From the NCBI RefSeq assembly GCF_000017945.1, contig NC_009776.1:120001-152000 (forward strand): 32,000 bases of DNA. Reading direction: 5' to 3'. How positions within the stretch are numbered: the stretch's first letter is position 1; each line of letters opens with the position of its first letter. Below are positions 451-9,314 of the stretch, piece after piece. Source of the stretch: Ignicoccus hospitalis KIN4/I (GTDB lineage: Archaea > Thermoproteota > Thermoprotei_A > Sulfolobales > Ignicoccaceae). Both the position numbers and the translations under genes were made by a program. The notes under the pieces are model-generated. The model made no database searches. It was not told the origin of the DNA and saw nothing but the letters and a program-made list of their open reading frames with translations.

Positions 451-479
451 AGAGAGCGCACTTGAGGCGCCGAAGGCTA

Positions 480-1745
480 ATGATGCGTATAGTTGTGAGG
501 AGTAAGAAGGACGCGGACGCAGTAAGGGCGATGTTGAGCCAAGCCCTCCCCTCGTGGAACGCCGAGGTGGTCACGCTAAAGGGGGCTAGGAAGGAAAAGA
601 TATTGGATGTTATAAATGACGTCGTCGATCCGGACGCGTTCAACATAGTGCTGTTGGGAAGGGAGGATTCGGAAGTGATAAGGGAATTAACAGAGACCAC
701 GCCGCCTAACGTAATAGTACACCTCGTGCCCCGGGCCAGGGTTAGGAACGCGAGGCTCTCCCACCTTAGGTGGGAGCTGGAGAGGGCCAAGGCCCAGCCC
801 AGGGGCTGGGTGCGGTGGTCGGGCGAAGTGCCTTACTTGGAGAAGAAGTTCCCCGCGAGGGTCGAGCCGGGCGAGGAACCGTTCCTCGCCTGGGGCCTCT
901 GGTGGAAGACCTTGGGCCTCGGAGAACCATCCGAAAAATCGTTCTTAGTCTTTAAGAGGCAGAAGGGCTTCCACGAGGTCTATTCAGAAGGTAGAACTGT
1001 AGCCATGTTTGAAATGAATGATTTTGCGTACCCTAAGGTTACTAAGCTGGGAGAGGTTAAAGGCTTCGACATAATGAAGTCCGTCGAGATGAGCGAAGGC
1101 GTGTTGGAGGTTTGGGAAAAGGTCTCTTCCAAGGTATTAGAAGGCTGCGAGAGGGCGGTCGTCCCTTGGAGCGGCGGGAAGGACAGTACTGCAGCTCTGT
1201 TGATAGCGAAGAGGGCTTGCGACGAGGTCACTGCGGTCTACGTTGACACGGGCGTCGATATGTACTTAAATAGGAAGTACGTGGAACTCTGGTCCCAGAA
1301 GCTGAATGTAGACTTGATAATTAAAGAAGTTCCCGTGAAGAGTCAGATATTCCAAAGAGGGTTGCCCACCAAAGAGGACAGGTGGTGTACAGCCCTCAAG
1401 TTGAAGGGGTTAGAGGAGGCGATAAGGGAAGTGAAGCCCGACTACATAGTCGTGGGCGACCGGGACGCGGAGTCCCAAGCGCGCTCGGCCAGGTGGGAGG
1501 AGAGGGCTTGGGAGGGCGTGGGCACGGTTAAGGCCCCCTTAAAGCTCTGGAGCGCTATGATGGTCCAGCTTTACCTATTCAAGAATAAGGTCTTTCCCAA
1601 CCCGCTCTACGCCTCCGGCTTCTACCGGTTGGGCTGTTACGTATGCCCCTTCTTCCGGGCCTACGAGAGGGAGCTCGTGAGGAGGGTCCCTCCGGCCAAG
1701 CTGGGCACCGACGAGGAGTTGCTGAAGAAGTTCTTAGAAGGCTGA
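480..1745 (+). CDS. PP-loop ATP pyrophosphatase of the PAPS-reductase / DndC-like family with an uncharacterised ~215-aa N-terminal domain
   Basis: An SGGKDS PP-loop lies at 1170-1187 (VVPWSGGKDSTAALL), followed by VYVDTGVD. The C-terminal NPLYASGFYRLGCYVCP is as in the PAPS reductase family. The ORF opens at TTG 462, but ATG 480/483 fits the upstream TATA-like box better. Confidence 0.8.
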   Translation: MMRIVVRSKKDADAVRAMLSQALPSWNAEVVTLKGARKEKILDVINDVVDPDAFNIVLLGREDSEVIRELTETTPPNVIVHLVPRARVRNARLSHLRWELERAKAQPRGWVRWSGEVPYLEKKFPARVEPGEEPFLAWGLWWKTLGLGEPSEKSFLVFKRQKGFHEVYSEGRTVAMFEMNDFAYPKVTKLGEVKGFDIMKSVEMSEGVLEVWEKVSSKVLEGCERAVVPWSGGKDSTAALLIAKRACDEVTAVYVDTGVDMYLNRKYVELWSQKLNVDLIIKEVPVKSQIFQRGLPTKEDRWCTALKLKGLEEAIREVKPDYIVVGDRDAESQARSARWEERAWEGVGTVKAPLKLWSAMMVQLYLFKNKVFPNPLYASGFYRLGCYVCPFFRAYERELVRRVPPAKLGTDEELLKKFLEG

Positions 1746-1775: not shown

Positions 1776-2573
1776 ATGATGTGCCGGTCAAAAGAGAACT
1801 TCTTTTTAGAATTTGAAAGGTTAATGGTCGAGAGCGCTAAGGACGAGGTAACTGCGGATTCTACAGTGGTAATGGGGATACTCGCCGAGGCCTCGAGGAA
1901 CTTGCTCGCCACCCCTTGCACCCCTAGGACTTCCGGCTTTTGGAGCAAGCTGACGGAGTTCGTCAAGAAGGCCAGAGAAACCAACGACTATTACCTCAAG
2001 AAGGTTTACGCGGAAAAGATCAGGGACGGCGTCCTAGCCTTGGTGAGCTCGGAAAAGGAGTGGAACGCCAAGGGGAACGCAGTGTTGCTGTTATCCGCAG
2101 TCATAAGCGTGCTCGCCAAGCCGTTAACTCCCATTAGCTACGTCCCTTGGGCTAGCTTACTCGTGTACCAGCTCTCGCCCGTCGCCGCCCTCCTCTTGCT
2201 CGCGTCCTCCGGTCTGGCGGCGTTGGCTTTGAAGCCTACCTTGGGATTGTTGTTCTTGATATCTGCTGTTGGGGGATACCTCGAGAGGAAGGTAGAACTA
2301 GACTTGAGCGTCCCGAAGGTCGCGAGGAGGGTCTCTCGAGAGGAGGTGGAGCGCTTGTTCGTCCAGTACTACGGCGAGAGGCTGGGACGCGAGCTCTTCC
2401 GCTTCGAGCTGTACCAGCTGATACTTTCTGGAAGGACCGTGGAGGAGGCCCTTTCCGAGCTCTGGGAGAGGCTCACCAACACACAAATATCCTCAAGGGG
2501 TTACGGAAGGTTAGGAGGAGAGCGTGTCAGCGCCGGGAGGAGGGAAGACCAAGGAGCTGAAAATAATAACTAG
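1776..2573 (+). CDS. Hypothetical membrane protein: ~100-aa N-terminal soluble domain, about 3 TM helices, ~95-aa C-terminal soluble domain containing RLGG
   Basis: The ATG ORF has hydrophobic segments AVLLLSAVISVLA, WASLLVYQLSPVAALLLLASSGLAALAL and TLGLLFLISAVGGYL. The C-terminal part ends ...SSRGYGRLGG-ERVSAGRREDQGAENNN. The gene starts 30 nt after the preceding gene on the same strand. Confidence 0.6.
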   Translation: MMCRSKENFFLEFERLMVESAKDEVTADSTVVMGILAEASRNLLATPCTPRTSGFWSKLTEFVKKARETNDYYLKKVYAEKIRDGVLALVSSEKEWNAKGNAVLLLSAVISVLAKPLTPISYVPWASLLVYQLSPVAALLLLASSGLAALALKPTLGLLFLISAVGGYLERKVELDLSVPKVARRVSREEVERLFVQYYGERLGRELFRFELYQLILSGRTVEEALSELWERLTNTQISSRGYGRLGGERVSAGRREDQGAENNN

Positions 2574-2613
2574 GCAAGTACTCACCGTAGATGACGTTAA
2601 GAAAAACAAGAAC

Positions 2614-2970
2614 ATGAAGATAATATTACACATAGTTAAACACTTGGGCGAAGTCTCGGAGAAGGGGCTAACGAGGCTCCTCTACGAGATGAAGGAGAAG
2701 GGCCTTGACTTGGGTTACCAGTTCGTAAAGATAGGAAAAGTCATAGGGAGCAAGGACCTTCACCAAGACATAATGGACTTGCTCTACGTAGGCCTCCTCG
2801 AGAGGAACCCGGCCAAGAACAAGCTGAGGCTCACCCGCGACGGCGAGGAGTTCTTGGAGAAGAACGGGCTTCCCGAAGAAGAGATCAAGCCTATACTGTC
2901 GCTGGTGGACCAGCTGAAGCCCGTGATAGAGCCAATAGAGGCCGAAGTTGAGATGAGGAGGAGGCCGTAA
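2614..2970 (+). CDS. Small winged-helix (wHTH)-like protein, function unknown
   Basis: MKIILHIVKHLGEVSEKGLTRLLYEMKEKGL...LLYVGLLERNPAKNKLRLTRDGEEFLEK matches the helix-turn-helix plus wing pattern of MarR/PadR-type wHTH domains. The ORF track opens at GTG 2524, overlapping the previous gene. ATG 2614 lies after that gene's stop and is preferred, but the start is uncertain. Confidence 0.5.
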   Translation: MKIILHIVKHLGEVSEKGLTRLLYEMKEKGLDLGYQFVKIGKVIGSKDLHQDIMDLLYVGLLERNPAKNKLRLTRDGEEFLEKNGLPEEEIKPILSLVDQLKPVIEPIEAEVEMRRRP

Positions 2971-2972
2971 GG

Positions 2973-3701
2973 TTGAGCGCCCAGCCCGGCGAAATCCACA
3001 TAACGATATTGATGAAGCCCGAGCTCTCCGAGTACCACGTCACTGCGAACTACGGCGACACCCCGGACGAGGTCAGGAACAAGCTGGCGGAGAAGTTGGG
3101 CATAAGCCCCTCGAGGATAAGGCTTTTCATAAAGAGGCCGGACGGGGCGGAGTACGAGATAACCCACTCCTCCGAGAGCGTGGGCCAAATAGTGAGCGTC
3201 CACGGGAACGTGTGGTACGCTTCGATAGAGGAGCCTTACGGCTCCTTGATAGATGCCATCGAGGCCTTCAGAGAACACTACTTGAGTTCGGGAGAGCTAC
3301 AAAAGAAGTACTCCCCATTGGCCAACGACCCGGGCTTGGGGATCTGGACGGAAAAGTCTTGCAAGAGGAAGGAGTATTGCAGCCCCTCCCGCCCCTACAG
3401 AGTCTTCGTTTTTCCCAGCGTAGGCTACCCCGTCACTCAACCCTTGATATTCGTCTCCCCTAAGGTCCTCCACAAGTGTTGTTTTTACAACTTGAAGTCG
3501 CAGTTCTTCGATATAAAGGCCAAGGAGCTTCCGGAGCTCGCGCCCGCCTTCGAGGAGGCCTCCAAGTTGGTAAACGTTAACATGTGTGTTATGCACATAG
3601 AATCTTGGGATTACTTAAGAAAGGTCGAGAGGAACCCCCTAGAGGTGCTGGACCGTGCCCTATGCACGGACGTTGGACTCTGCGACGGTACCGGTGCATA
3701 A
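2973..3701 (+). CDS. Fusion protein: N-terminal ubiquitin-like beta-grasp domain (aa ~7-87) plus C-terminal E2/UBC-like domain (aa ~88-242)
   Basis: The TTG start lies 2 nt after the upstream stop. In the N-terminal domain, GDTPDEVRNKLAEKLGISPSRIRLF parallels ubiquitin [26 protein letters not shown], flanked by strand-like IHITILM, EYHVTAN and NVWYASIEE. In the C-terminal domain, RVFVFPSVGYPVTQPLIFVSPKVLH (3399-3473) parallels the UBC core [27 protein letters not shown]. Candidate catalytic Cys residues are C169/C170 and C205 (NMCVMHIESW, compare ICLDILxxxW). Confidence 0.6.
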   Translation: MSAQPGEIHITILMKPELSEYHVTANYGDTPDEVRNKLAEKLGISPSRIRLFIKRPDGAEYEITHSSESVGQIVSVHGNVWYASIEEPYGSLIDAIEAFREHYLSSGELQKKYSPLANDPGLGIWTEKSCKRKEYCSPSRPYRVFVFPSVGYPVTQPLIFVSPKVLHKCCFYNLKSQFFDIKAKELPELAPAFEEASKLVNVNMCVMHIESWDYLRKVERNPLEVLDRALCTDVGLCDGTGA

Positions 3702-4473
3702 CGCCGTAATAGACCCGGCAGTCTTCGTGCCCTTGGCCGAGGTAGGCATTAAGAACAAGTGCTATGAGCTTACCGTCGACGCCTCCGAAGACGTGGTGTC
3801 GTTCAGCGGGAGCTTGGACGACACGACCATAACTATTAACAGCGTCAGATACATGAAGGCCGTGGAAAAGGGGCCGACGCACGTAAGGACGTACGACTTC
3901 TTGCCGGACGACGTGGTGGTTGCCCACTACCACTGCGGCATCCCTCCTGAGCCCTCCGCAATCGACGTAGAAACCATGAAACTCGCCTTGAGGGCTCAAC
4001 TAATGGCTACGCTGCCGGGGAGGCCGAGGGTCTTCGGCATAATCTCCCCTACGGTGGCGGGGTCCTCCTTCTGCTTGTCATTAAGCCTCTACGAGCCTGT
4101 GCCCAAGGCTACTATAGCTTTCAAGACGGAGCGCTTGAGGCTGGGCGACTTAGACTTCCTCGAGGGCATTAGGAAGGGCTTCGTCCGCTTGGAGGAGGGG
4201 GACTCCGAGTATTATTTAACCGACCTTTGTGAGGGGCTCGAGCGCGGCTGCTACCCTTTTCGCTACGGAAGCGTGCCGGAAATAGTATTGGAGGACTTCA
4301 TATTCATCCTTTCATATAGTATAAATACCAAGAAGAAGAAATTTCCTTACGCAAAGGTGTCGCCCTCTAAGGCGGTAGTATACGAGGTGGAAGTGGCTAA
4401 TTTTGACGCGAAGGACGCGGTCATACGGGGACTCGTTTGGCGGCTCCGAGGGGCTTCTACGAGAGGACGTTGA
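3655..4473 (+). CDS. JAMM/MPN+ (JAB) metalloprotease-like protein with ~140-aa uncharacterised C-terminal extension
   Basis: An exact JAMM zinc motif H-x-H-x7-S-x2-D is present: VVVAHYHCGIPPEPSAIDVETM, nt 3925-3966. An upstream Glu candidate is in NKCYELTVD. Possible starts are GTG 3655 (47-nt overlap with the upstream gene) or GTG 3694 (8-nt overlap). Confidence 0.75.
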   Translation: MPYARTLDSATVPVHNAVIDPAVFVPLAEVGIKNKCYELTVDASEDVVSFSGSLDDTTITINSVRYMKAVEKGPTHVRTYDFLPDDVVVAHYHCGIPPEPSAIDVETMKLALRAQLMATLPGRPRVFGIISPTVAGSSFCLSLSLYEPVPKATIAFKTERLRLGDLDFLEGIRKGFVRLEEGDSEYYLTDLCEGLERGCYPFRYGSVPEIVLEDFIFILSYSINTKKKKFPYAKVSPSKAVVYEVEVANFDAKDAVIRGLVWRLRGASTRGR

Positions 4474-5228
4474 GGTACTTGCGGGAGGTCGCCGACCCCG
4501 AGGCGCTGAAGGACAAGGTCGTCCTAGTGGGGGGCGTCGGCACCATAGGTTCCAGGCTCGTCAGGAACTTAGCTAGGTTCAACTTCAAAAAGATTATCAT
4601 TATCGACATAGACTACGTCGGCCCGGAGAACGTGGGTTACCAGTGCTATCACACGGAAGAGATAGGGGCGCCTAAGGTCGAAGCTCTTAGCAAGAGGTTC
4701 CGGAGGTACCACCCTTGGACGGAGGTTCAAGGAGTATACTTGGAGGTCTTCACTCCCTCCGGTTTGAGCTCCCTTAGCGAGCTGAAGAAGTTTGCGGAGC
4801 TAGTGAGGGAGAGCGACGTCGTGGTGACGGCTTTCGACACCTTGCCCCCTCGGGCTACCGCACTGTTGTTGGCAGTTAAGTACGGAAAGAAGTACGTTGA
4901 CGTAGGCCTCGGGAGCACCAGGGGGTACGTGAAGTTCTTGAAAGACGGTTACTGCCCGATATGCTCGAAGGTTTGGGAAGAGAAGGTTACTTACTACACC
5001 AACCCCAACTTGGCCGAGGTGGTGGCGGCGTTGGGGGCACAAGCGGCCTTGCGGGCGGCTTTAGGTATGGACTGGCCGAGCGAGGTACACGTCAACCTAG
5101 AAGAGCCCTTGAAAGCTTACATGGCCAGTGACGTCAAGAACGACGGGTGCCCGCTCTGTTCAGAAGAGGTAAGGGCGTTAGCCATAGAAGAGGTTCCTAA
5201 CTACCTAATAAAAAACGTGTATCAATGA
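4437..5228 (+). CDS. E1-like adenylyltransferase of the ThiF/MoeB/UbaA family (263 aa, minimal form)
   Basis: The Rossmann nucleotide loop is VVLVGGVGTIGS (4530-4553), followed by IIIIDIDYVGPENVGYQ, IGAPKVEAL and DVVVTAFDTLPPR (compare the D-x-x-D-N-x-x-x-R region of ThiF/MoeB). Two CxxC pairs are present: CPIC at 4953-4964 and CPLC at 5148-5159, like the Zn site of MoeB/ThiF. Possible starts are TTG 4437, or TTG 4470 in a TTGA overlap with the JAB stop. Confidence 0.8.
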   Translation: MAAPRGFYERTLRYLREVADPEALKDKVVLVGGVGTIGSRLVRNLARFNFKKIIIIDIDYVGPENVGYQCYHTEEIGAPKVEALSKRFRRYHPWTEVQGVYLEVFTPSGLSSLSELKKFAELVRESDVVVTAFDTLPPRATALLLAVKYGKKYVDVGLGSTRGYVKFLKDGYCPICSKVWEEKVTYYTNPNLAEVVAALGAQAALRAALGMDWPSEVHVNLEEPLKAYMASDVKNDGCPLCSEEVRALAIEEVPNYLIKNVYQ

Positions 5229-5233
5229 CTGCT

Positions 5234-6523
5234 TCACCTAGGAGTTAGGTTCGTGTAGAGCTTCAGCCCTTCGGCCGGGCTCCAGAAGCCCACGTCCTCG
5301 AATACGGGCTTGCCGTCCACCATCTTCACTGTCCAGATGCTGTAACTAGTGCTCAAGGGCTCTTGGTATATCGCGTTCATGCTCTTGTCGCCGCTGAAGC
5401 CCTTGTATATGTAGCTCATCTCTATTATGCCGTGCTCCACCAAGTTCGGGTTGTAGCTGGCTGCCCTGAGGGCGCCCAGCGTCACCAGCCACACTGCGTC
5501 GTACAGGGTGTCGCTGAACACGACCGGAGCCTTGCCGTAGACGCTCTCATAGTACTTGATGAAGTTGCCAGAGGTGTAGGGGGCGGTGCCGAGTACGTGC
5601 TTGGCAGCGAGTACCCTAGCGACCACCGGGTCCTCTATGAGCGCTGGGCCCTTTACGGCCTCAGTGAAGAACCACGGGTACCTCTGTAAGCCTAATTGCA
5701 AGGCTTGCCTTAGTATTACCTTTATCTCGTCGAAGGCGAGCCACACTATCGCTTGCGGCTTGTAGTTGTTTATGGTCCTAAGCTCGGCAAGGTAGCTCCT
5801 CGCGTTGGGGTCGTAAGGTATCAGGTAGGCCTTCCCTCCTTCGGCCTCAAAGGCCTGCTTGAAGGCCATGGCGAAGCCTTTGCCGTAGTCGTCGTTCCTG
5901 TAGAAGAACACTACCTTATTGTAGCCGAAGCTCTTAACGACCTTAGCTAGAGCCTTCGCTTGGAACAAGTCGCTGCTAACGCTGAAGAAGACGTAGCTGT
6001 AGCCCAGCTTCGCTATGTAGTCACGGTTGTTGAACCTCACTAGCGGGGAGGTGCTGGAGTGGCTCATCAGTATTACCTTGAGCTCGCCGTTGATGACGTC
6101 TTGGAGGGTACCGACGGCCGCGCTGGTGGCGGGGCCTACGACCAAACGGACGCCGTCGACGTTGACCAGCTTCCTAACCTTCTCTAAAGCCACTTGCGGG
6201 TTAGTCTGGGTGTCCTCCACTACCCACGTCACCTTGAACGGCAGCCCCAATTCCTTGAAACAGTAGTTCAAGTCCCTCGCGGCCAGCTCTACGGCGTAGC
6301 GCTCGTCGGCGAAGCTGGCGAGGGCACCGCTCATGGGTATTAGGGCACCTATCTTTATGGTGGTACCTCCTAAGCCTTCCTTCACCTTCTCTAAACCGCC
6401 GGCTCTCTCAACAGCTATCTTGAGGTAGTCGCACTTGGGCCCGCCGTAAGCTTCTTGAGGCGCGACAGCGAGGACTGCGGACGTCATTACGGCTAGTAAG
6501 AGCAGAGGAAGAAACTTCTTCAT
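5234..6523 (-). CDS. Extracellular solute-binding protein, type-1 periplasmic binding fold (Leu/Ile/Val-binding LivJ-like family), with N-terminal signal/anchor
   Basis: An N-terminal hydrophobic segment (MKKFLPLLLLAVMTSAVLAVA) is followed by IKIGALIPMSGALASF...EDTQTNPQVALEKVRKLVNVDGVRLVVGPATSAAV, the typical LivJ-family layout. The gene is convergent with the E1-like gene, with 5 nt between the stops. Confidence 0.8.
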   Translation of the reverse strand: MKKFLPLLLLAVMTSAVLAVAPQEAYGGPKCDYLKIAVERAGGLEKVKEGLGGTTIKIGALIPMSGALASFADERYAVELAARDLNYCFKELGLPFKVTWVVEDTQTNPQVALEKVRKLVNVDGVRLVVGPATSAAVGTLQDVINGELKVILMSHSSTSPLVRFNNRDYIAKLGYSYVFFSVSSDLFQAKALAKVVKSFGYNKVVFFYRNDDYGKGFAMAFKQAFEAEGGKAYLIPYDPNARSYLAELRTINNYKPQAIVWLAFDEIKVILRQALQLGLQRYPWFFTEAVKGPALIEDPVVARVLAAKHVLGTAPYTSGNFIKYYESVYGKAPVVFSDTLYDAVWLVTLGALRAASYNPNLVEHGIIEMSYIYKGFSGDKSMNAIYQEPLSTSYSIWTVKMVDGKPVFEDVGFWSPAEGLKLYTNLTPR

Positions 6524-6558
6524 GGCACAGTCTCCAAAGCCTTGGGAGTAAACCTCGG

Positions 6559-6574
6559 TTTAAAAATTTTAATT
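6559..6574 (-). promoter_or_regulatory. TATA-like box for the downstream binding-protein gene (5234-6523)
   Basis: The minus strand reads AAAATTAAAATTTTTAAA immediately after the stop of the upstream paralog. TTTTTAAA lies about 39 nt upstream of ATG 6523. Confidence 0.4.
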
Positions 6575-7870
6575 TTACTTGGGCCTGATCGGCGTAAAGA
6601 GTTCTATTCCTTTCTCGGGGTCCCAGAACCCTACTTTGACCACGGTCGGCTTGCCGTTCTCTATCTTGATAGTCCAGTAGTGGTATGAGGACCTCATAAC
6701 TTCTTGAGTCAGCGGGTTGAAGGTCTTGGGTCCGGTATAGCCCTTGAAGTACGCTCCGACCTCGATCAGCGCCTCCCTTATGGCGTCGGCGTCGTACTTC
6801 TTCGCCTTCAATACGCTGAGGGCAGACAGCCACAAGGTGTCATATATGTAGTCCGCGTACAACATTGGAGGTATGCCGAACCTCTTTTCGTACAGCTTTG
6901 CGAAGACGTCGCTGCCGCCGGGCCCGGTGCCCATGCCGTTCTTGAGGGCCACTACTTTGGCTAGGTACGGGTCGTTCAGGAGCACGCCCCTACAAGTCTC
7001 GCTGAACAACCACGGGTACCTCTGCAAACCTAGTTGCATCGCTTGCCTCAATATAACCTTCAGCTCGTCGAATGAGATGAAGAGTATCGCGTCGGGGTTG
7101 CTGTTGGCAACTACTCTCAGCTCCGCGTCGAAGGTCCTCGCGTTAGGGTCGTAGGGGACCAGTACGCATTCGCCGCCGTTTTGAGAGAAGTAATACTTGA
7201 AGGCGTTAGCCAGCCCAACGCCGTAGTCGTCTTGGCGGAACACGATAGTGACCTTCTTGTAGCCGAGCTTGGTGGCCAGTTCGGCTAACGCCTTCCCTTG
7301 GAAGTAGTCGTTGGTGATGGCCCAGAATATGTAGGACTTCCCGGTCTTGGAGATGTACTCCTTGTAGTTGGCGATCCTTAAGTTGGGCGCGGTGCTGGTA
7401 GCGGACATCACCACTACGTGTAGCTCCGAGTTGACCGGATACATCAACGACCCCATAGGTCTGCTCGTGATCCTGCCCGCAATTATTTGTACTCCTTGGA
7501 GAGCGAGCTTCCTAACGACTTCTACAGCGACTTGGGGGTCTGTGCGGGTGTCTTCCATTATGAACTTGAACCTCCACGGAAGGCCGAGCTTCTCCATACA
7601 GCCGTTGATGTCGTCGGAGGCCATCTTAATTGCATTGTAGTTAGAGACGGCGAACGAACCCAAGGCCCCGCTGAGCGGGGCGGGTGCGCCTATCGGTATC
7701 TCCTTCGGGAGGCGTATGTTGTCTACGCCGCCGGCCCATTCTATCACCTTCTTTATGCTCTCGCAGTTGGGCCCCAGTTGGTAGGGCTTGGTCAACAGGT
7801 CCATCTCTTCGGTCGAAGCTGCGATTACAAAGGCCGTCATTAATAGCGTTAACAGTAAACCCGTCCTCAC
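6575..7870 (-). CDS. Extracellular solute-binding protein, LivJ-like family; paralog of 5234-6523
   Basis: The GTG start is followed by a signal-like N-terminus, MRTGLLLTLLMTAFVIAAS. IPIGAPAPLSGALGSF...EDTRTDPQVAVEVVRKLALQGVQIIAG aligns along its whole length with the neighbouring gene product. Confidence 0.8.
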   Translation of the reverse strand: MRTGLLLTLLMTAFVIAASTEEMDLLTKPYQLGPNCESIKKVIEWAGGVDNIRLPKEIPIGAPAPLSGALGSFAVSNYNAIKMASDDINGCMEKLGLPWRFKFIMEDTRTDPQVAVEVVRKLALQGVQIIAGRITSRPMGSLMYPVNSELHVVVMSATSTAPNLRIANYKEYISKTGKSYIFWAITNDYFQGKALAELATKLGYKKVTIVFRQDDYGVGLANAFKYYFSQNGGECVLVPYDPNARTFDAELRVVANSNPDAILFISFDELKVILRQAMQLGLQRYPWLFSETCRGVLLNDPYLAKVVALKNGMGTGPGGSDVFAKLYEKRFGIPPMLYADYIYDTLWLSALSVLKAKKYDADAIREALIEVGAYFKGYTGPKTFNPLTQEVMRSSYHYWTIKIENGKPTVVKVGFWDPEKGIELFTPIRPK

Positions 7871-8021
7871 TGGTTACACCCTCACCCTTTCGCTGCACAG
7901 ACCGGGTTTTTGAGTATATGCACCCCTAACATACATAGCATTGTACATAACTGTATATGATCAATATATACGACTTCGCAAGCGCTTCGGAGCTGAGGTT
8001 GGCTGGGCGCTCGGCAGCTGG

Positions 8022-8030
8022 TTTATATAT
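8022..8030 (+). promoter_or_regulatory. Consensus-like archaeal TATA box TTTATATAT
   Basis: TTTATATA is a near-perfect archaeal TATA element, embedded in otherwise GC-rich sequence. It lies 8 nt upstream of a perfect 16-bp palindrome and about 130 nt upstream of ATG 8158. Confidence 0.4.
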
Positions 8031-8037
8031 GGCGAGC

Positions 8038-8053
8038 GGAGTAGTACTACTCC
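8038..8053. promoter_or_regulatory. Perfect 16-bp palindrome GGAGTAGTACTACTCC: candidate operator, or hairpin at a transcript 5' end
   Basis: The sequence equals its own reverse complement. Its position just downstream of the TATA-like box is where archaeal repressors commonly bind, overlapping the expected transcription start. Confidence 0.35.
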
Positions 8054-8157
8054 ATACCGGGTGCCTTAAGGTGGCGGTCGCTAGCCTCCCCGGGAGCGCG
8101 CAGACTTCCTCTACCGTTCGCTTCGCGCCCGCTCCCCCGAAAAAGAGCGTACTCATT

Positions 8158-8748
8158 ATGGGTACTTTCGAGCCTAAGTACAAGCTCATAAACTCCCTGT
8201 ATGTAGCCCTAACCAAGTTAGAGGAACTCGATATGGTGTCTTCAGCGGGGATGATAGACAACAACGTCTTCTCCGTACCCGGCGACGAAGCTCCATACGC
8301 TAAAATCATGTTTACTATAGGAAAGAAGACTAAGGAGTACTGGTTAGTAGGCGTCCCGTCCGAAATATCCACGAAAATATTGTCCAACCTTAAGGACAGT
8401 ATAAGAGCGTTTAGGGGGAGTCTCCCGAAGGAGACGATTTACGAAATAGTGGACGACCCAGAGGGCTTGGCCAAAATAATGGGGGGCGTTAAGAGAATAG
8501 TCTACGTCTTCGATCCCGAGACCCAAGCCTACGCCTCCATTGAACTGGCTAACATGCTCGCGGCTTTTGAGGGGAGGAAGGCAGAGAAGGTGGCGGTCGT
8601 TAACGTAGGAAAGGGTATGCCGGCCTTCGTTCCGAGCACCTTACAAGCCCTAGAAAGGCTCGGCTTCGTCAAGGACAGCCTCGTGCTGGAGACGCCCACC
8701 TTGAATAGCTTTGAGATGCTCAAGTTGGCCAAGTTCGTCTTTCTTTGA
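8158..8748 (+). CDS. Hypothetical protein (197 aa from ATG 8158; the ORF is open from ATG 7957)
   Basis: From MGTFEPKYKLINSLYVALTKLEELD... onward the composition is Lys/Glu/Val-rich like the other proteins here. The 67 codons upstream (7957-8157) are Ala/Ser/Gly/Leu-rich, and the opposite strand is also open across them. I therefore favour the internal start. I recognise no family. Confidence 0.5.
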   Translation: MGTFEPKYKLINSLYVALTKLEELDMVSSAGMIDNNVFSVPGDEAPYAKIMFTIGKKTKEYWLVGVPSEISTKILSNLKDSIRAFRGSLPKETIYEIVDDPEGLAKIMGGVKRIVYVFDPETQAYASIELANMLAAFEGRKAEKVAVVNVGKGMPAFVPSTLQALERLGFVKDSLVLETPTLNSFEMLKLAKFVFL

Positions 8749-9314
8749 TGGAGACCTCATTCAAAAAGCCCTCAGCCCCTTCCCTCGTGGGAGGGGTTTT
8801 GGTAGCGAAAGGCGAGGCGAAGGTATACTTGGACGGCAACGTGTTGTTGGCGGCCTCCACCCTAGAAGATAAGCTGCACGACGAAACGGTAGAGTTCTTA
8901 GACTTGGTGAAGAAGGCCGACTGGGAGCTAGTTATAGGCACCCCCATACTGCTCGAGCTGGAACAGTTGCTCTACTTGGGCGACATGGGCTGGTTCAGGC
9001 TCCGGCACGCGCTTTCGGCGCTCCCCAAGTACGAGATAAAGATAATCGAGGACGACCATAAGAAGGTGCTGGAGCTGGCGAACGAGTACTTGAACGAGAG
9101 GGTTCTGTCAGAGAAGTACTTCACCAACTTGTTAGTCATAGCGTCGGCTACGCTCGGCGACGTTGACTATTTGGTTTCGTGGGACTCTAGGAGGATGGCT
9201 AACAAGAGCGTGGTTACTGCCGTGAACAGGGTCAACTTGAACAAGAAGCTCAGGGAGATAGAGATAGTCACACCTAAAAGGCTATCCCAGATAATTAAGG
9301 AGGAGGTGTTGTGA
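8748..9314 (+). CDS. PIN-domain-like protein (possible VapC-type nuclease, divergent)
   Basis: KVYLDGNVLLAAS gives the first acidic residue in strand 1 and ILLELEQ a Glu. NLLVIASATLGDVDYLVSWDSR resembles the PIN pattern (D-xx-h-h-A-x-A ... h-h-T-x-D), with Asn in place of the usual third acidic residue. ATG 8748 overlaps the upstream TGA (TGATG). Confidence 0.5.
   Translation: METSFKKPSAPSLVGGVLVAKGEAKVYLDGNVLLAASTLEDKLHDETVEFLDLVKKADWELVIGTPILLELEQLLYLGDMGWFRLRHALSALPKYEIKIIEDDHKKVLELANEYLNERVLSEKYFTNLLVIASATLGDVDYLVSWDSRRMANKSVVTAVNRVNLNKKLREIEIVTPKRLSQIIKEEVL

Follow-up and report, generated by a model that had tools for sequence, protein, structure and literature searches.

Does the hyperthermophilic archaeon Ignicoccus hospitalis encode a ubiquitin-like (Ubl) protein conjugation system of its own, complete with an E2-like component? 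The question is raised by three genes in a stretch of 32,000 nucleotides (nt) of I. hospitalis KIN4/I (contig NC_009776.1, positions 120,001 to 152,000), here called the window, in which all coordinates are counted on the plus strand from window position 1. The three open reading frames (ORFs), ORF1 (2973-3701, 242 aa), ORF2 (3655-4473, 272 aa) and ORF3 (4437-5228, 263 aa), all lie on the plus strand, at exactly the coordinates given in an earlier reading of the bare nucleotide sequence (the original prediction), and overlap by 47 nt (3655-3701) and 37 nt (4437-4473), which indicates that they are translationally coupled. In the original prediction they were regarded as a single functional cassette, the first protein joining a ubiquitin-like to an E2-like domain, the second being a JAMM protease and the third a minimal E1. 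This idea is supported by the domain identities and by the co-conservation of the genes, and we consider it probable that the cassette is a self-contained archaeal Ubl conjugation system which, by analogy, is built like the Type I Bub systems, with the JAB and E1 modules encoded by separate genes.

Both overlaps are dual-coding. In the family alignments the overlapping protein ends are conserved, the tail of ORF1 (ALCTDVGLCDG) together with the head of ORF2 (ARTLDSATV), and likewise the tail of ORF2 together with the head of ORF3.

Conservation of the three genes

Relatives of ORF1 were sought with an alignment of 13 family members (A1), used as a profile hidden Markov model (HMM) in an exhaustive search of 1.84 billion representative sequences, which returned 15 matches in all. 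In the Ignicoccus clade, the three genes belong to a block (PAPS-reductase-like protein, 265-aa protein, 148-aa protein, ORF1, ORF2, ORF3) that is syntenic in Ignicoccus pacificus (locus L004) and in two metagenome-assembled genomes (MAGs) of Desulfurococcales/Thermoproteota (loci L001 and L002). The exhaustive search also revealed four distant proteins with the architecture of ORF1; genomic context was available for three of them, and the trio is present in all three. In loci L006 and L007 the gene for the Ubl-E2-like protein is followed by genes for a 328-aa Prok-JAB protein, a ThiF protein and a small JAB protein, and in locus L008 by genes for a 259-aa JAB protein, a ThiF protein and, again, a small JAB protein. 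Six Asgard loci (L009-L014), which encode proteins of Wukongarchaeota and Hodarchaeota, contain the Ubl-E2-like gene followed by a single gene for a 601-aa JAB-ThiF fusion. Asgard archaea are among the nearest relatives outside the Ignicoccus clade. A metagenome scan with an alignment restricted to the Asgard proteins (A7) found three close relatives only. The gene order Ubl-E2-like, JAB, E1 is common to three distant lineages besides the Ignicoccus clade, and the co-conservation that the original prediction had named as a test of its reading is found in four divergent lineages. Because the three upstream genes of the Ignicoccus block are absent elsewhere, we regard the Ubl-E2-like protein, the JAB module and the E1 as the conserved core.

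The distant loci also contain additional genes. In both L006 and L008 a second, small stand-alone JAB is encoded past the E1. L006 further encodes a 245-aa HEAT-repeat protein that ends in a ubiquitin domain and a 713-aa protein full of CxxC zinc-finger repeats (extra genes at 2968-3414 and, on the minus strand, at 3855-5996 and 6061-6798), and L008 encodes a Cys-rich 147-aa protein and a DUF87/HerA-like ATPase (extra genes at 5562-5993, 5990-6433 and 6619-8838). In all Asgard loci for which the upstream region is available, a gene for a 119-aa protein of the zinc-ribbon type (Auto_anti-p27, PF06677) lies ~280 nt upstream of the Ubl-E2-like gene; this linkage is not yet informative, because the Asgard loci are closely related to each other. 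Their wider surroundings comprise genes for S27e, eIF2-alpha, STT3/OST3, RadA and histones.

Domain composition of the three proteins

ORF1 and ORF2 have no family in Pfam, NCBIfam, PADLOC or PHROGs, which makes both proteins currently invisible to annotation, and single-sequence phmmer searches with either of them against the PDB sequences gave no significant match. For the single ORF1 sequence the Pfam ubiquitin model gives E=0.16. The AlphaFold2 (AF2) model of ORF1 computed from alignment A1 has a mean predicted local distance difference test score (pLDDT) of 87 and a predicted template-modelling (TM) score (pTM) of 0.64. In this model, residues 7-85 are arranged as beta-beta-alpha-beta-beta-alpha-beta, and Foldseek retrieved UFM1, the Ubl domain of TBCE, SUMO and the Caldiarchaeum ubiquitin with a probability of 1.0 and target-normalised TM scores of 0.65-0.75. 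At the level of sequence, the A1 HMM matched polyubiquitin-type proteins through its Ubl segment (P0049, 1.7e-9; P0053, 6.8e-6), both of which were confirmed by Pfam, and among the 1.84 billion representatives it matched no ThiS or MoaD protein. Since the predicted fold and the profile matches agree, we conclude that residues 1-90 of ORF1 are a ubiquitin-type beta-grasp, as had been proposed from a resemblance of the N-terminus to ubiquitin.

The Ubl domain ends in the invariant block EEPYG, whose Gly90 (nt 3240-3242) lies five residues beyond the last strand and is one of ten positions that are still invariant after the most distant relatives of ORF1 have been added. The ten-residue block around Gly90 is the part of the ORF1 model with the lowest confidence (pLDDT ~75), and the combination of a pTM of 0.64 with a pLDDT of 87 suggests that the two domains of the modelled protein are connected by a flexible linker. 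We predict that Gly90 is the site of processing and the C-terminus used for activation; both its invariance and its position in the linker fit such a site.

ORF3 is recognized by the Pfam ThiF model with E 3.9e-23 (82 bits vs the cut-off of 28). Its residues were mapped by alignment with E. coli MoeB and with distant relatives. ORF3 keeps the GxGxxG motif (GVGTIG, nt 4533-4550), D57, K80 and D134 (equivalent to D130 of MoeB), as well as two CxxC pairs, C173/C176 (nt 4953-4964) and C238/C241 (nt 5148-5159), which by analogy to MoeB would hold a structural zinc; in these respects it is indeed a minimal E1 of the ThiF/MoeB type. By score it falls outside the housekeeping members of that group, a clustering with which the original prediction had named as a point against itself: its scores lie far below the NCBIfam equivalog cut-offs for ThiF (63.6 vs 159), MoeB (34.1 vs 376.6) and UbaA (31 vs 450), and also for Atg7 (31.1 vs 571). 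Homologs detected at E<=1e-5 in a word-indexed search come from the Ignicoccus clade only, relatives in the PDB were found at 1e-6 to 4e-8, and the PADLOC models of E1-E2 (Cap2) proteins match ORF3 with values up to 6e-13.

The crossover loop of ORF3 (VTYYTNPN, with Tyr186-Tyr187 at nt 4992-4997) contains no Cys, and the sole Cys of the protein besides the four putative zinc ligands is C70. Tyr187 aligns with C187 of MoeB, and a crossover-loop Tyr is invariant in the aligned E1s of the Ignicoccus clade and of L008 (YYTNPN, TYIANPN); E1s of the Asgard and L006 types keep the Cys (SKCTVAS, GGCTVAS). The E1s are divided in the same way by the Arg of the N-x-x-R-Q motif (R73 in MoeB), which the Asgard and L006 types retain and in place of which the Ignicoccus clade and L008 have a Tyr (ENVGYQ at aa 64-69 of ORF3, nt 4626-4643).

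In ORF2, the exact JAMM motif announced by the original prediction, HYHCGIPPEPSAID, is located at aa 91-104 (nt 3925-3966) and reads H91-x-H93-x7-S101-x2-D104. The segment H91-Y-H93-CGIPPEP-S101-AI-D104 is invariant in 19 members of the ORF2 family, with Glu45 upstream (nt 3787-3789), and all five catalytic residues (E45, H91, H93, S101 and D104) are still invariant when the JAB modules of L006, L008 and the Asgard loci are aligned. No Pfam JAB model matches ORF2 itself; Prok-JAB annotates the modules homologous to it in L006 and in the Asgard fusion. With the JAMM lobe of the ORF2 model (pLDDT 89, pTM 0.87), Foldseek retrieved Rpn11, CSN5, BRCC36 and the Caldiarchaeum homolog of Rpn11, over ~155 residues and with a root-mean-square deviation (rmsd) of 3-4.6 A.

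The best matches to the full-length ORF2 model are the N-terminal domain (NTD) of STIL (7e-10) and the N-terminal E2-binding domain of Atg7 (6e-8 to 2e-6; ~290 columns, rmsd 7-8 A), with a TM score of ~0.5. Both of these domains have been described as composed of two MPN-like lobes (PMC5928214), and on this ground we interpret ORF2 as an active-type JAMM lobe, with the catalytic residues intact in the alignment, plus a second lobe predicted by the model. Homologs of the second lobe are the middle region of the JAB-E1 fusion from Asgard archaea, to which it aligns at corresponding positions with a BLASTP E of 0.007, and the JAB protein of L008 (hhalign P 5e-4, 180 columns). By way of this lobe the protease probably docks onto the E1, the E2-like domain or both, as in the fused Asgard version.

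In the C-terminal half of ORF1, the motif FPSVGYPVTQPLIFVSPKVLH, in which the original prediction recognized the strand-loop pattern of the UBC core, is present, with P148, S149, P153, P157 and P163 invariant; its PSxxYPxxxP block (nt 3414-3443) is followed by His167, Cys169 (nt 3477-3479) and His208 (nt 3594-3596). According to AF2, residues 91-242 form, in this order, two alpha helices, four beta strands, two helices, a short strand and two helices, an arrangement that in the model fits the UBC core (alpha1, four-stranded meander, C-terminal helices). Two distant relatives, P0051 and P0060, match the Pfam families UQ_con (E 0.0056-0.12) and UEV (0.017-0.049) over the region ILPSxxYPxxPP...H-x-C, in each case below the cut-offs. 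A profile of the isolated domain (A4) detected two of 177,635 PDB sequences at E<=10, both of them E2/UEV proteins aligned in the same register (E 0.3), and hhalign comparison with a set of seven canonical E2 sequences gave P=0.0017 over 32 columns that span beta3-YPxxPP-beta4-His, vs P=0.12 for an unrelated control. The similarity to the UBC core that had been claimed is thus specific but weak, and the structure search described below does not confirm it. Judging mostly from the context of this domain, we are nevertheless rather confident that residues 91-242 adopt an E2 fold.

Seven Cys residues of ORF1 are invariant within the Ignicoccus clade. Six of them, in the E2-like domain, are specific to that clade; they probably form thermostabilising disulfides or a zinc site. 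The possibility that the seven Cys define the function of the protein, as in a metal-binding or Fe-S domain, was considered and rejected as a core feature, since six are absent from the distant relatives. Across the Ignicoccus, Asgard, L006-type and L008-type proteins, Cys169 and His208 are the only invariant Cys and His residues of the E2-like domain. Among the three candidate cysteines of the original prediction (C169, C170 and C205), C169 is conserved beyond the Ignicoccus clade and C170 and C205 are not, so that the homologs of the E2-like region do share one Cys, invariant in all of them. Between Cys169 and His208 the Ignicoccus proteins contain a two-helix insertion of ~30 residues, which the Asgard proteins lack.

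Functional interpretation and neighbouring genes

How could these proteins work together? We infer the whole cycle, in every step, by analogy to characterized systems. ORF1 would be made as a Ubl-E2-like pro-protein, and the zinc-dependent JAMM protease ORF2 would cut it past Gly90 (EEPYG/S), which would set the E2-like domain free and leave a Ubl of 90 residues with an exposed Gly at its C-terminus. ORF3 is probably a homodimer whose CxxC pairs bind a structural zinc, and it would adenylate Gly90 with ATP. As ORF3 has no crossover-loop Cys, the acyl group would then be transferred via Tyr187 (as an oxyester, like in the Bub E1) or straight to Cys169, with His208 as the catalytic partner of Cys169. 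From there the Ubl would be moved onto target lysines without the help of an E3, and ORF2 may also take it off its targets. A more speculative possibility is that the cassette employs a mixed relay, in which the first step falls to a Tyr of the E1 crossover loop and the second to a Cys/His dyad that has been relocated within a remodelled E2 fold.

Several observations count against this interpretation. The sequence evidence for the E2 fold lies under the family thresholds (15 bits vs the cut-off of 27 for UQ_con; hhalign probability 15%), and a Foldseek search of PDB and BFVD with the full ORF1 model does not confirm the fold, the best 50 matches in each of the two databases being all to the Ubl domain. 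In an ungapped comparison anchored on the YP dipeptide, where DHPCVREDGTVHI (P0060) is aligned on YHPNINSNGSICL (UbcH5b), the HPN Asn is matched by the invariant Cys, and the canonical catalytic Cys by the invariant His, i.e. in this register the invariant Cys is not found ~8-10 residues past HPN, where the catalytic Cys is expected. In a permissive local alignment by hhalign it is the CC pair that coincides with the catalytic Cys, and because the two alignments disagree, the mapping of the active site is uncertain. The replacement of Arg by Tyr in the RQ motif of ORF3 could mean weaker adenylation. Finally, the JAMM gene of I. pacificus (L004 8689-9509) is frameshifted near L004 9054-9060, where frame 1 (residues 3-124) gives way to frame 3 (residues 123-272), and the gene appears as two ORFs, of 128 and 140 aa. 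It could be a pseudogene, a sequencing error or a case of recoding; if the frameshift is real, the Ubl-E2 pro-protein of this species would not be processed by the JAMM enzyme. As to the active site, the positions of the HPN Asn and the catalytic Cys neighbour each other in E2 structures, therefore Cys169 and His208 likely form, as far as the alignments indicate, a dyad at a remodelled E2 active site.

Three other explanations of the locus are less well supported than a conjugation system. The cassette could belong to a sulfur-carrier pathway, in which a thiocarboxylate, formed on the Ubl once the ThiF-like E1 has adenylated it, gives sulfur to the PP-loop enzyme encoded upstream, similarly to TtuA/TtuB/TtuC or to Urm1/Uba4/Ncs6-like tRNA thiolation. 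Persulfide sulfur would be relayed by the Cys in the C-terminal domain of ORF1, and the JAMM protease would do nothing more than expose the C-terminal Gly. A PP-loop ATPase of the PAPS-reductase family does head the same-strand block in Ignicoccus and is syntenic in L001, L002 and L004; it is, however, missing from all non-Ignicoccus loci that contain the trio, and neither a rhodanese nor a cysteine desulfurase was found near the locus. The E1 has no Cys in its crossover loop and its best curated matches are the ThiF and MoeB models, but, as described above, it scores far under the cut-offs of these models and of UbaA. The beta-grasp is of the ubiquitin type, with profile matches to polyubiquitins and not to ThiS, MoaD or Urm1. 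Moreover, the predicted Ubl ends in one Gly and not in GG, with which sulfur carriers typically end, and the conserved E2-like domain would have no role in any known sulfur relay. We therefore consider a sulfur-carrier function quite unlikely.

Similarly improbable, in our opinion, is a role in antiviral defence, i.e. the same chemistry used by a mobile defence island to tag virus proteins, like in Bil or Bub. The closest characterised architectures (Bil, Bub and CBASS Cap2/Cap3) are associated with defence, PADLOC models match both ORF3 (Cap2) and the upstream PAPS-reductase-like protein (BrxP, SspD), and the L008 locus contains the DUF87/HerA-like ATPase and the second JAB. On the other hand, the PADLOC matches of ORF3 span the generic adenylation fold only, and ORF1 and ORF2 have no match in PADLOC or PHROGs. 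In the Ignicoccus clade the block is syntenic between housekeeping genes, an anomaly of GC content was looked for at the locus and none was found, and the Asgard locus is surrounded by the genes for S27e, eIF2-alpha, STT3/OST3, RadA and histones mentioned above. No integrase, tRNA or other marker of mobile elements is present among the assigned genes near the cassette (an assignment that did not include a tRNA scan).

Thirdly, residues 91-242 of ORF1 might not be an E2 domain but a peptidase or acyltransferase of the Cys-His kind, or else a regulatory domain that binds metal, with the Ubl left in place as a targeting or regulatory module and never conjugated. This would agree with the outcome of the structure search, with a Cys-His pair typical of cysteine hydrolases, with the His in place of Cys at the canonical E2 catalytic position of the ungapped register and with the potential metal-binding capacity of the seven Cys in the Ignicoccus proteins, but we find it very unlikely, given that six of these Cys are missing in the distant relatives, that UBC/UEV families are the only ones that recur across members at any threshold, that an invariant Gly90 at the junction and an always-adjacent E1 and JAMM protein with intact catalytic residues are hard to explain without processing and activation, and that the architecture is shared with BubAB, the C-terminal part of which has a solved structure that is a divergent UBC fold (PMC11601596).

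Table 1. Features of the three-gene cassette and of the genes upstream of it (window coordinates)
Feature	Coordinates	Strand	Basis
Ubl beta-grasp, ORF1 residues 1-90	2973-3242	+	AF2 secondary structure, Foldseek, family profile, invariant tail EEPYG
E2/UBC-like domain, ORF1 residues 91-242 + stop	3243-3701	+	motif register, weak profile matches, secondary-structure order
Catalytic JAMM/MPN+ lobe, ORF2 residues 1-150	3655-4104	+	invariant motif, Foldseek
Second lobe, ORF2 residues 151-272 + stop	4105-4473	+	full-length Foldseek, homology to Asgard fusion and L008 JAB
ThiF-type E1 adenylation domain, ORF3	4437-5228	+	Pfam ThiF, alignment with MoeB, Cys inventory
PAPS-reductase/PP-loop protein	462-1745	+	NCBIfam PRK08576 ("hypothetical protein"), 4.9e-161
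265-aa protein with hydrophobic stretches	1776-2573	+	hydrophobicity scan
148-aa winged-helix-like protein	2524-2970	+	stop 2 nt before ORF1 start

The three genes that precede ORF1 (Table 1) were considered as members of the core system and rejected, since they are absent from every non-Ignicoccus locus. The genes for the PAPS-reductase-like and 265-aa proteins, which are syntenic in L001, L002 and L004 and not found in the Asgard, L006 and L008 loci, are probably outside of it. In the PAPS-reductase-like protein the N-terminal ~200 aa have no family assignment; the protein also matches BrxP (1e-16) and SspD (6e-9) in PADLOC and a phage PAPS-reductase family in PHROGs (2e-30). The 148-aa protein is the best conserved of the Ignicoccus block, with 72-82% identity in L001, L002 and L004 (62-73% for ORF1). 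It has no family in Pfam, NCBIfam or PHROGs, and its matches to winged-helix models in PADLOC are weak. This protein may be a regulator, a partner or a substrate of the cassette. On the other side of the cassette, and convergent to it, two tandem paralogous genes (5234-6523 and 6575-7870, both on the minus strand) encode solute-binding proteins of the Peripla_BP_6/ANF-receptor type that are 44% identical to each other; the synteny of the pair extends to I. pacificus and the L001 MAG.

Comparison with known conjugation systems

To our knowledge, the only archaeal Ubl systems known to contain an E2 are those of the eukaryote-like operons in Caldiarchaeum and Asgard archaea, and the Ubl systems of crenarchaea have been regarded as E2-free; no earlier description of a Ubl-E2 fusion from Ignicoccus or from any other archaeon was found in the literature. 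The cassette described here would represent a second, Bub-like design in archaea, in which a JAMM protease processes a Ubl-E2 pro-protein and the E1 is minimal and lacks a catalytic Cys. This design is found in Asgard lineages as well as in a hyperthermophile that can be cultivated, in contexts of the housekeeping type and not in defence islands. Its thermostable proteins would offer material for dissecting the hand-over of a Ubl from a Cys-less minimal E1 to a rearranged Cys/His E2-like domain.

The bacterial Bil system (BilABCD) and the eukaryote-like operons of Caldiarchaeum and Asgard archaea share with the Ignicoccus cassette the combination of E1, E2 and a beta-grasp of the ubiquitin type with a JAMM/Rpn11-like protease, by which the C-terminus of the Ubl is pre-processed. 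Unlike the Ignicoccus cassette, they have a free Ubl gene, a canonical Cys-dependent E2 and an E1 in which a separate domain bears the catalytic Cys. A RING E3 is also encoded in the operons of Caldiarchaeum and Asgard archaea, and the E2-like site of Ignicoccus is rearranged. The SAMP/UbaA/HvJAMM1 and Urm1-type systems likewise combine a beta-grasp modifier with a ThiF-like E1 enzyme and a JAMM protease in archaea, but they lack an E2, and their modifiers are of the ThiS/MoaD type, end in GG and also serve as sulfur carriers; the low UbaA score of ORF3 (31 vs 450) agrees with this distinction. We conclude that the cassette is outside the Bil, the Caldiarchaeum-type and the SAMP/UbaA systems.

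A more distant comparison concerns Atg7, the non-canonical E1 of autophagy. Its N-terminal E2-binding domain resembles ORF2, and the Asgard fusion has the domain order, the size and the crossover-loop Cys of Atg7, with the difference that the N-terminal lobe is here a catalytically intact JAMM. The JAB-E1 fusion with its Atg7-NTD-like module is thereby a concrete candidate, open to testing, for the source from which the architecture of Atg7 arose. One could imagine that the Ignicoccus/Asgard family is the prokaryotic stock of Atg7, the NTD of which would be a degenerate descendant of an active JAMM and a second lobe fused before the E1, as in the 601-aa protein of Wukongarchaeota and Hodarchaeota, and that the Ubl-E2-like gene is the counterpart of Atg8/12 plus Atg3/10. 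We regard this scenario as unlikely, because the E1 halves are not specific for Atg7 at the level of sequence: the Asgard fusion matches UBA7, UBA1 and MoeB with ~1e-12 vs 3e-9 for Atg7, which is also outranked by UBA6, and for ORF3 the matches to Atg7 and MoeB are about equal. No homology of the E2-like domain to Atg3 or Atg10 was established.

The closest counterpart is the Type I Bub system (formerly 6E.1 or DUF6527), which comprises BubAB, BubCD and BubE and contains a Ubl-E2 fusion and a JAB-E1 fusion (Ye, Gong, Chambers, Corbett 2024, PMC11601596). With this precedent, the original prediction overstated its case in calling the fusion of a Ubl to an E2, in a system lacking an E3, a distinct architecture. 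In the Citrobacter Type I Bub system the JAB domain of BubCD cleaves BubAB directly past a conserved Gly, the Bub E1 lacks the crossover-loop Cys and uses an invariant Tyr, and the Bub E2 uses a Ser with a His and an Asp (PMC11601596). No Bub-type protein was identified among the 15 matches of the exhaustive search with the ORF1 family; the comparison is with the published description of Bub. The serine protease BubE (DUF6527, PF20137) has no Pfam match in the operon proteins of the window, nor in the precomputed annotation of the neighbours in L006-L014.

The systems differ in several respects. The JAB and E1 modules, fused in Bub and in the Asgard relatives, are split in Ignicoccus, where their genes overlap by 37 nt; the Ignicoccus JAB is two-lobed, its Ubl is a single beta-grasp and its host is an archaeon. 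The putative nucleophile is Cys169 with His208 instead of the Ser/His/Asp of Bub, and the Ignicoccus family has no invariant Ser at this site. The genomic context is housekeeping-like in Ignicoccus and Asgard archaea, and mobile or defence-related in Bub. What the systems have in common is the general plan: a Ubl that lies N-terminal to an E2-like domain and is joined to it at a conserved Gly (Gly90, invariant in all lineages analyzed here), a JAB/JAMM module ahead of a minimal E1 of the homodimer type, no E3, a Tyr for Cys in the crossover loop of the E1 (in the Ignicoccus clade and L008; the Asgard-type relatives keep Cys) and an E2-like site that pairs the nucleophile with an invariant His. 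The cassette is thus an archaeal variant of the Bub-type Ubl-E2/JAB/E1 system, with an architecture that is not unprecedented, and it widens the range of this architecture from bacteria to archaea.

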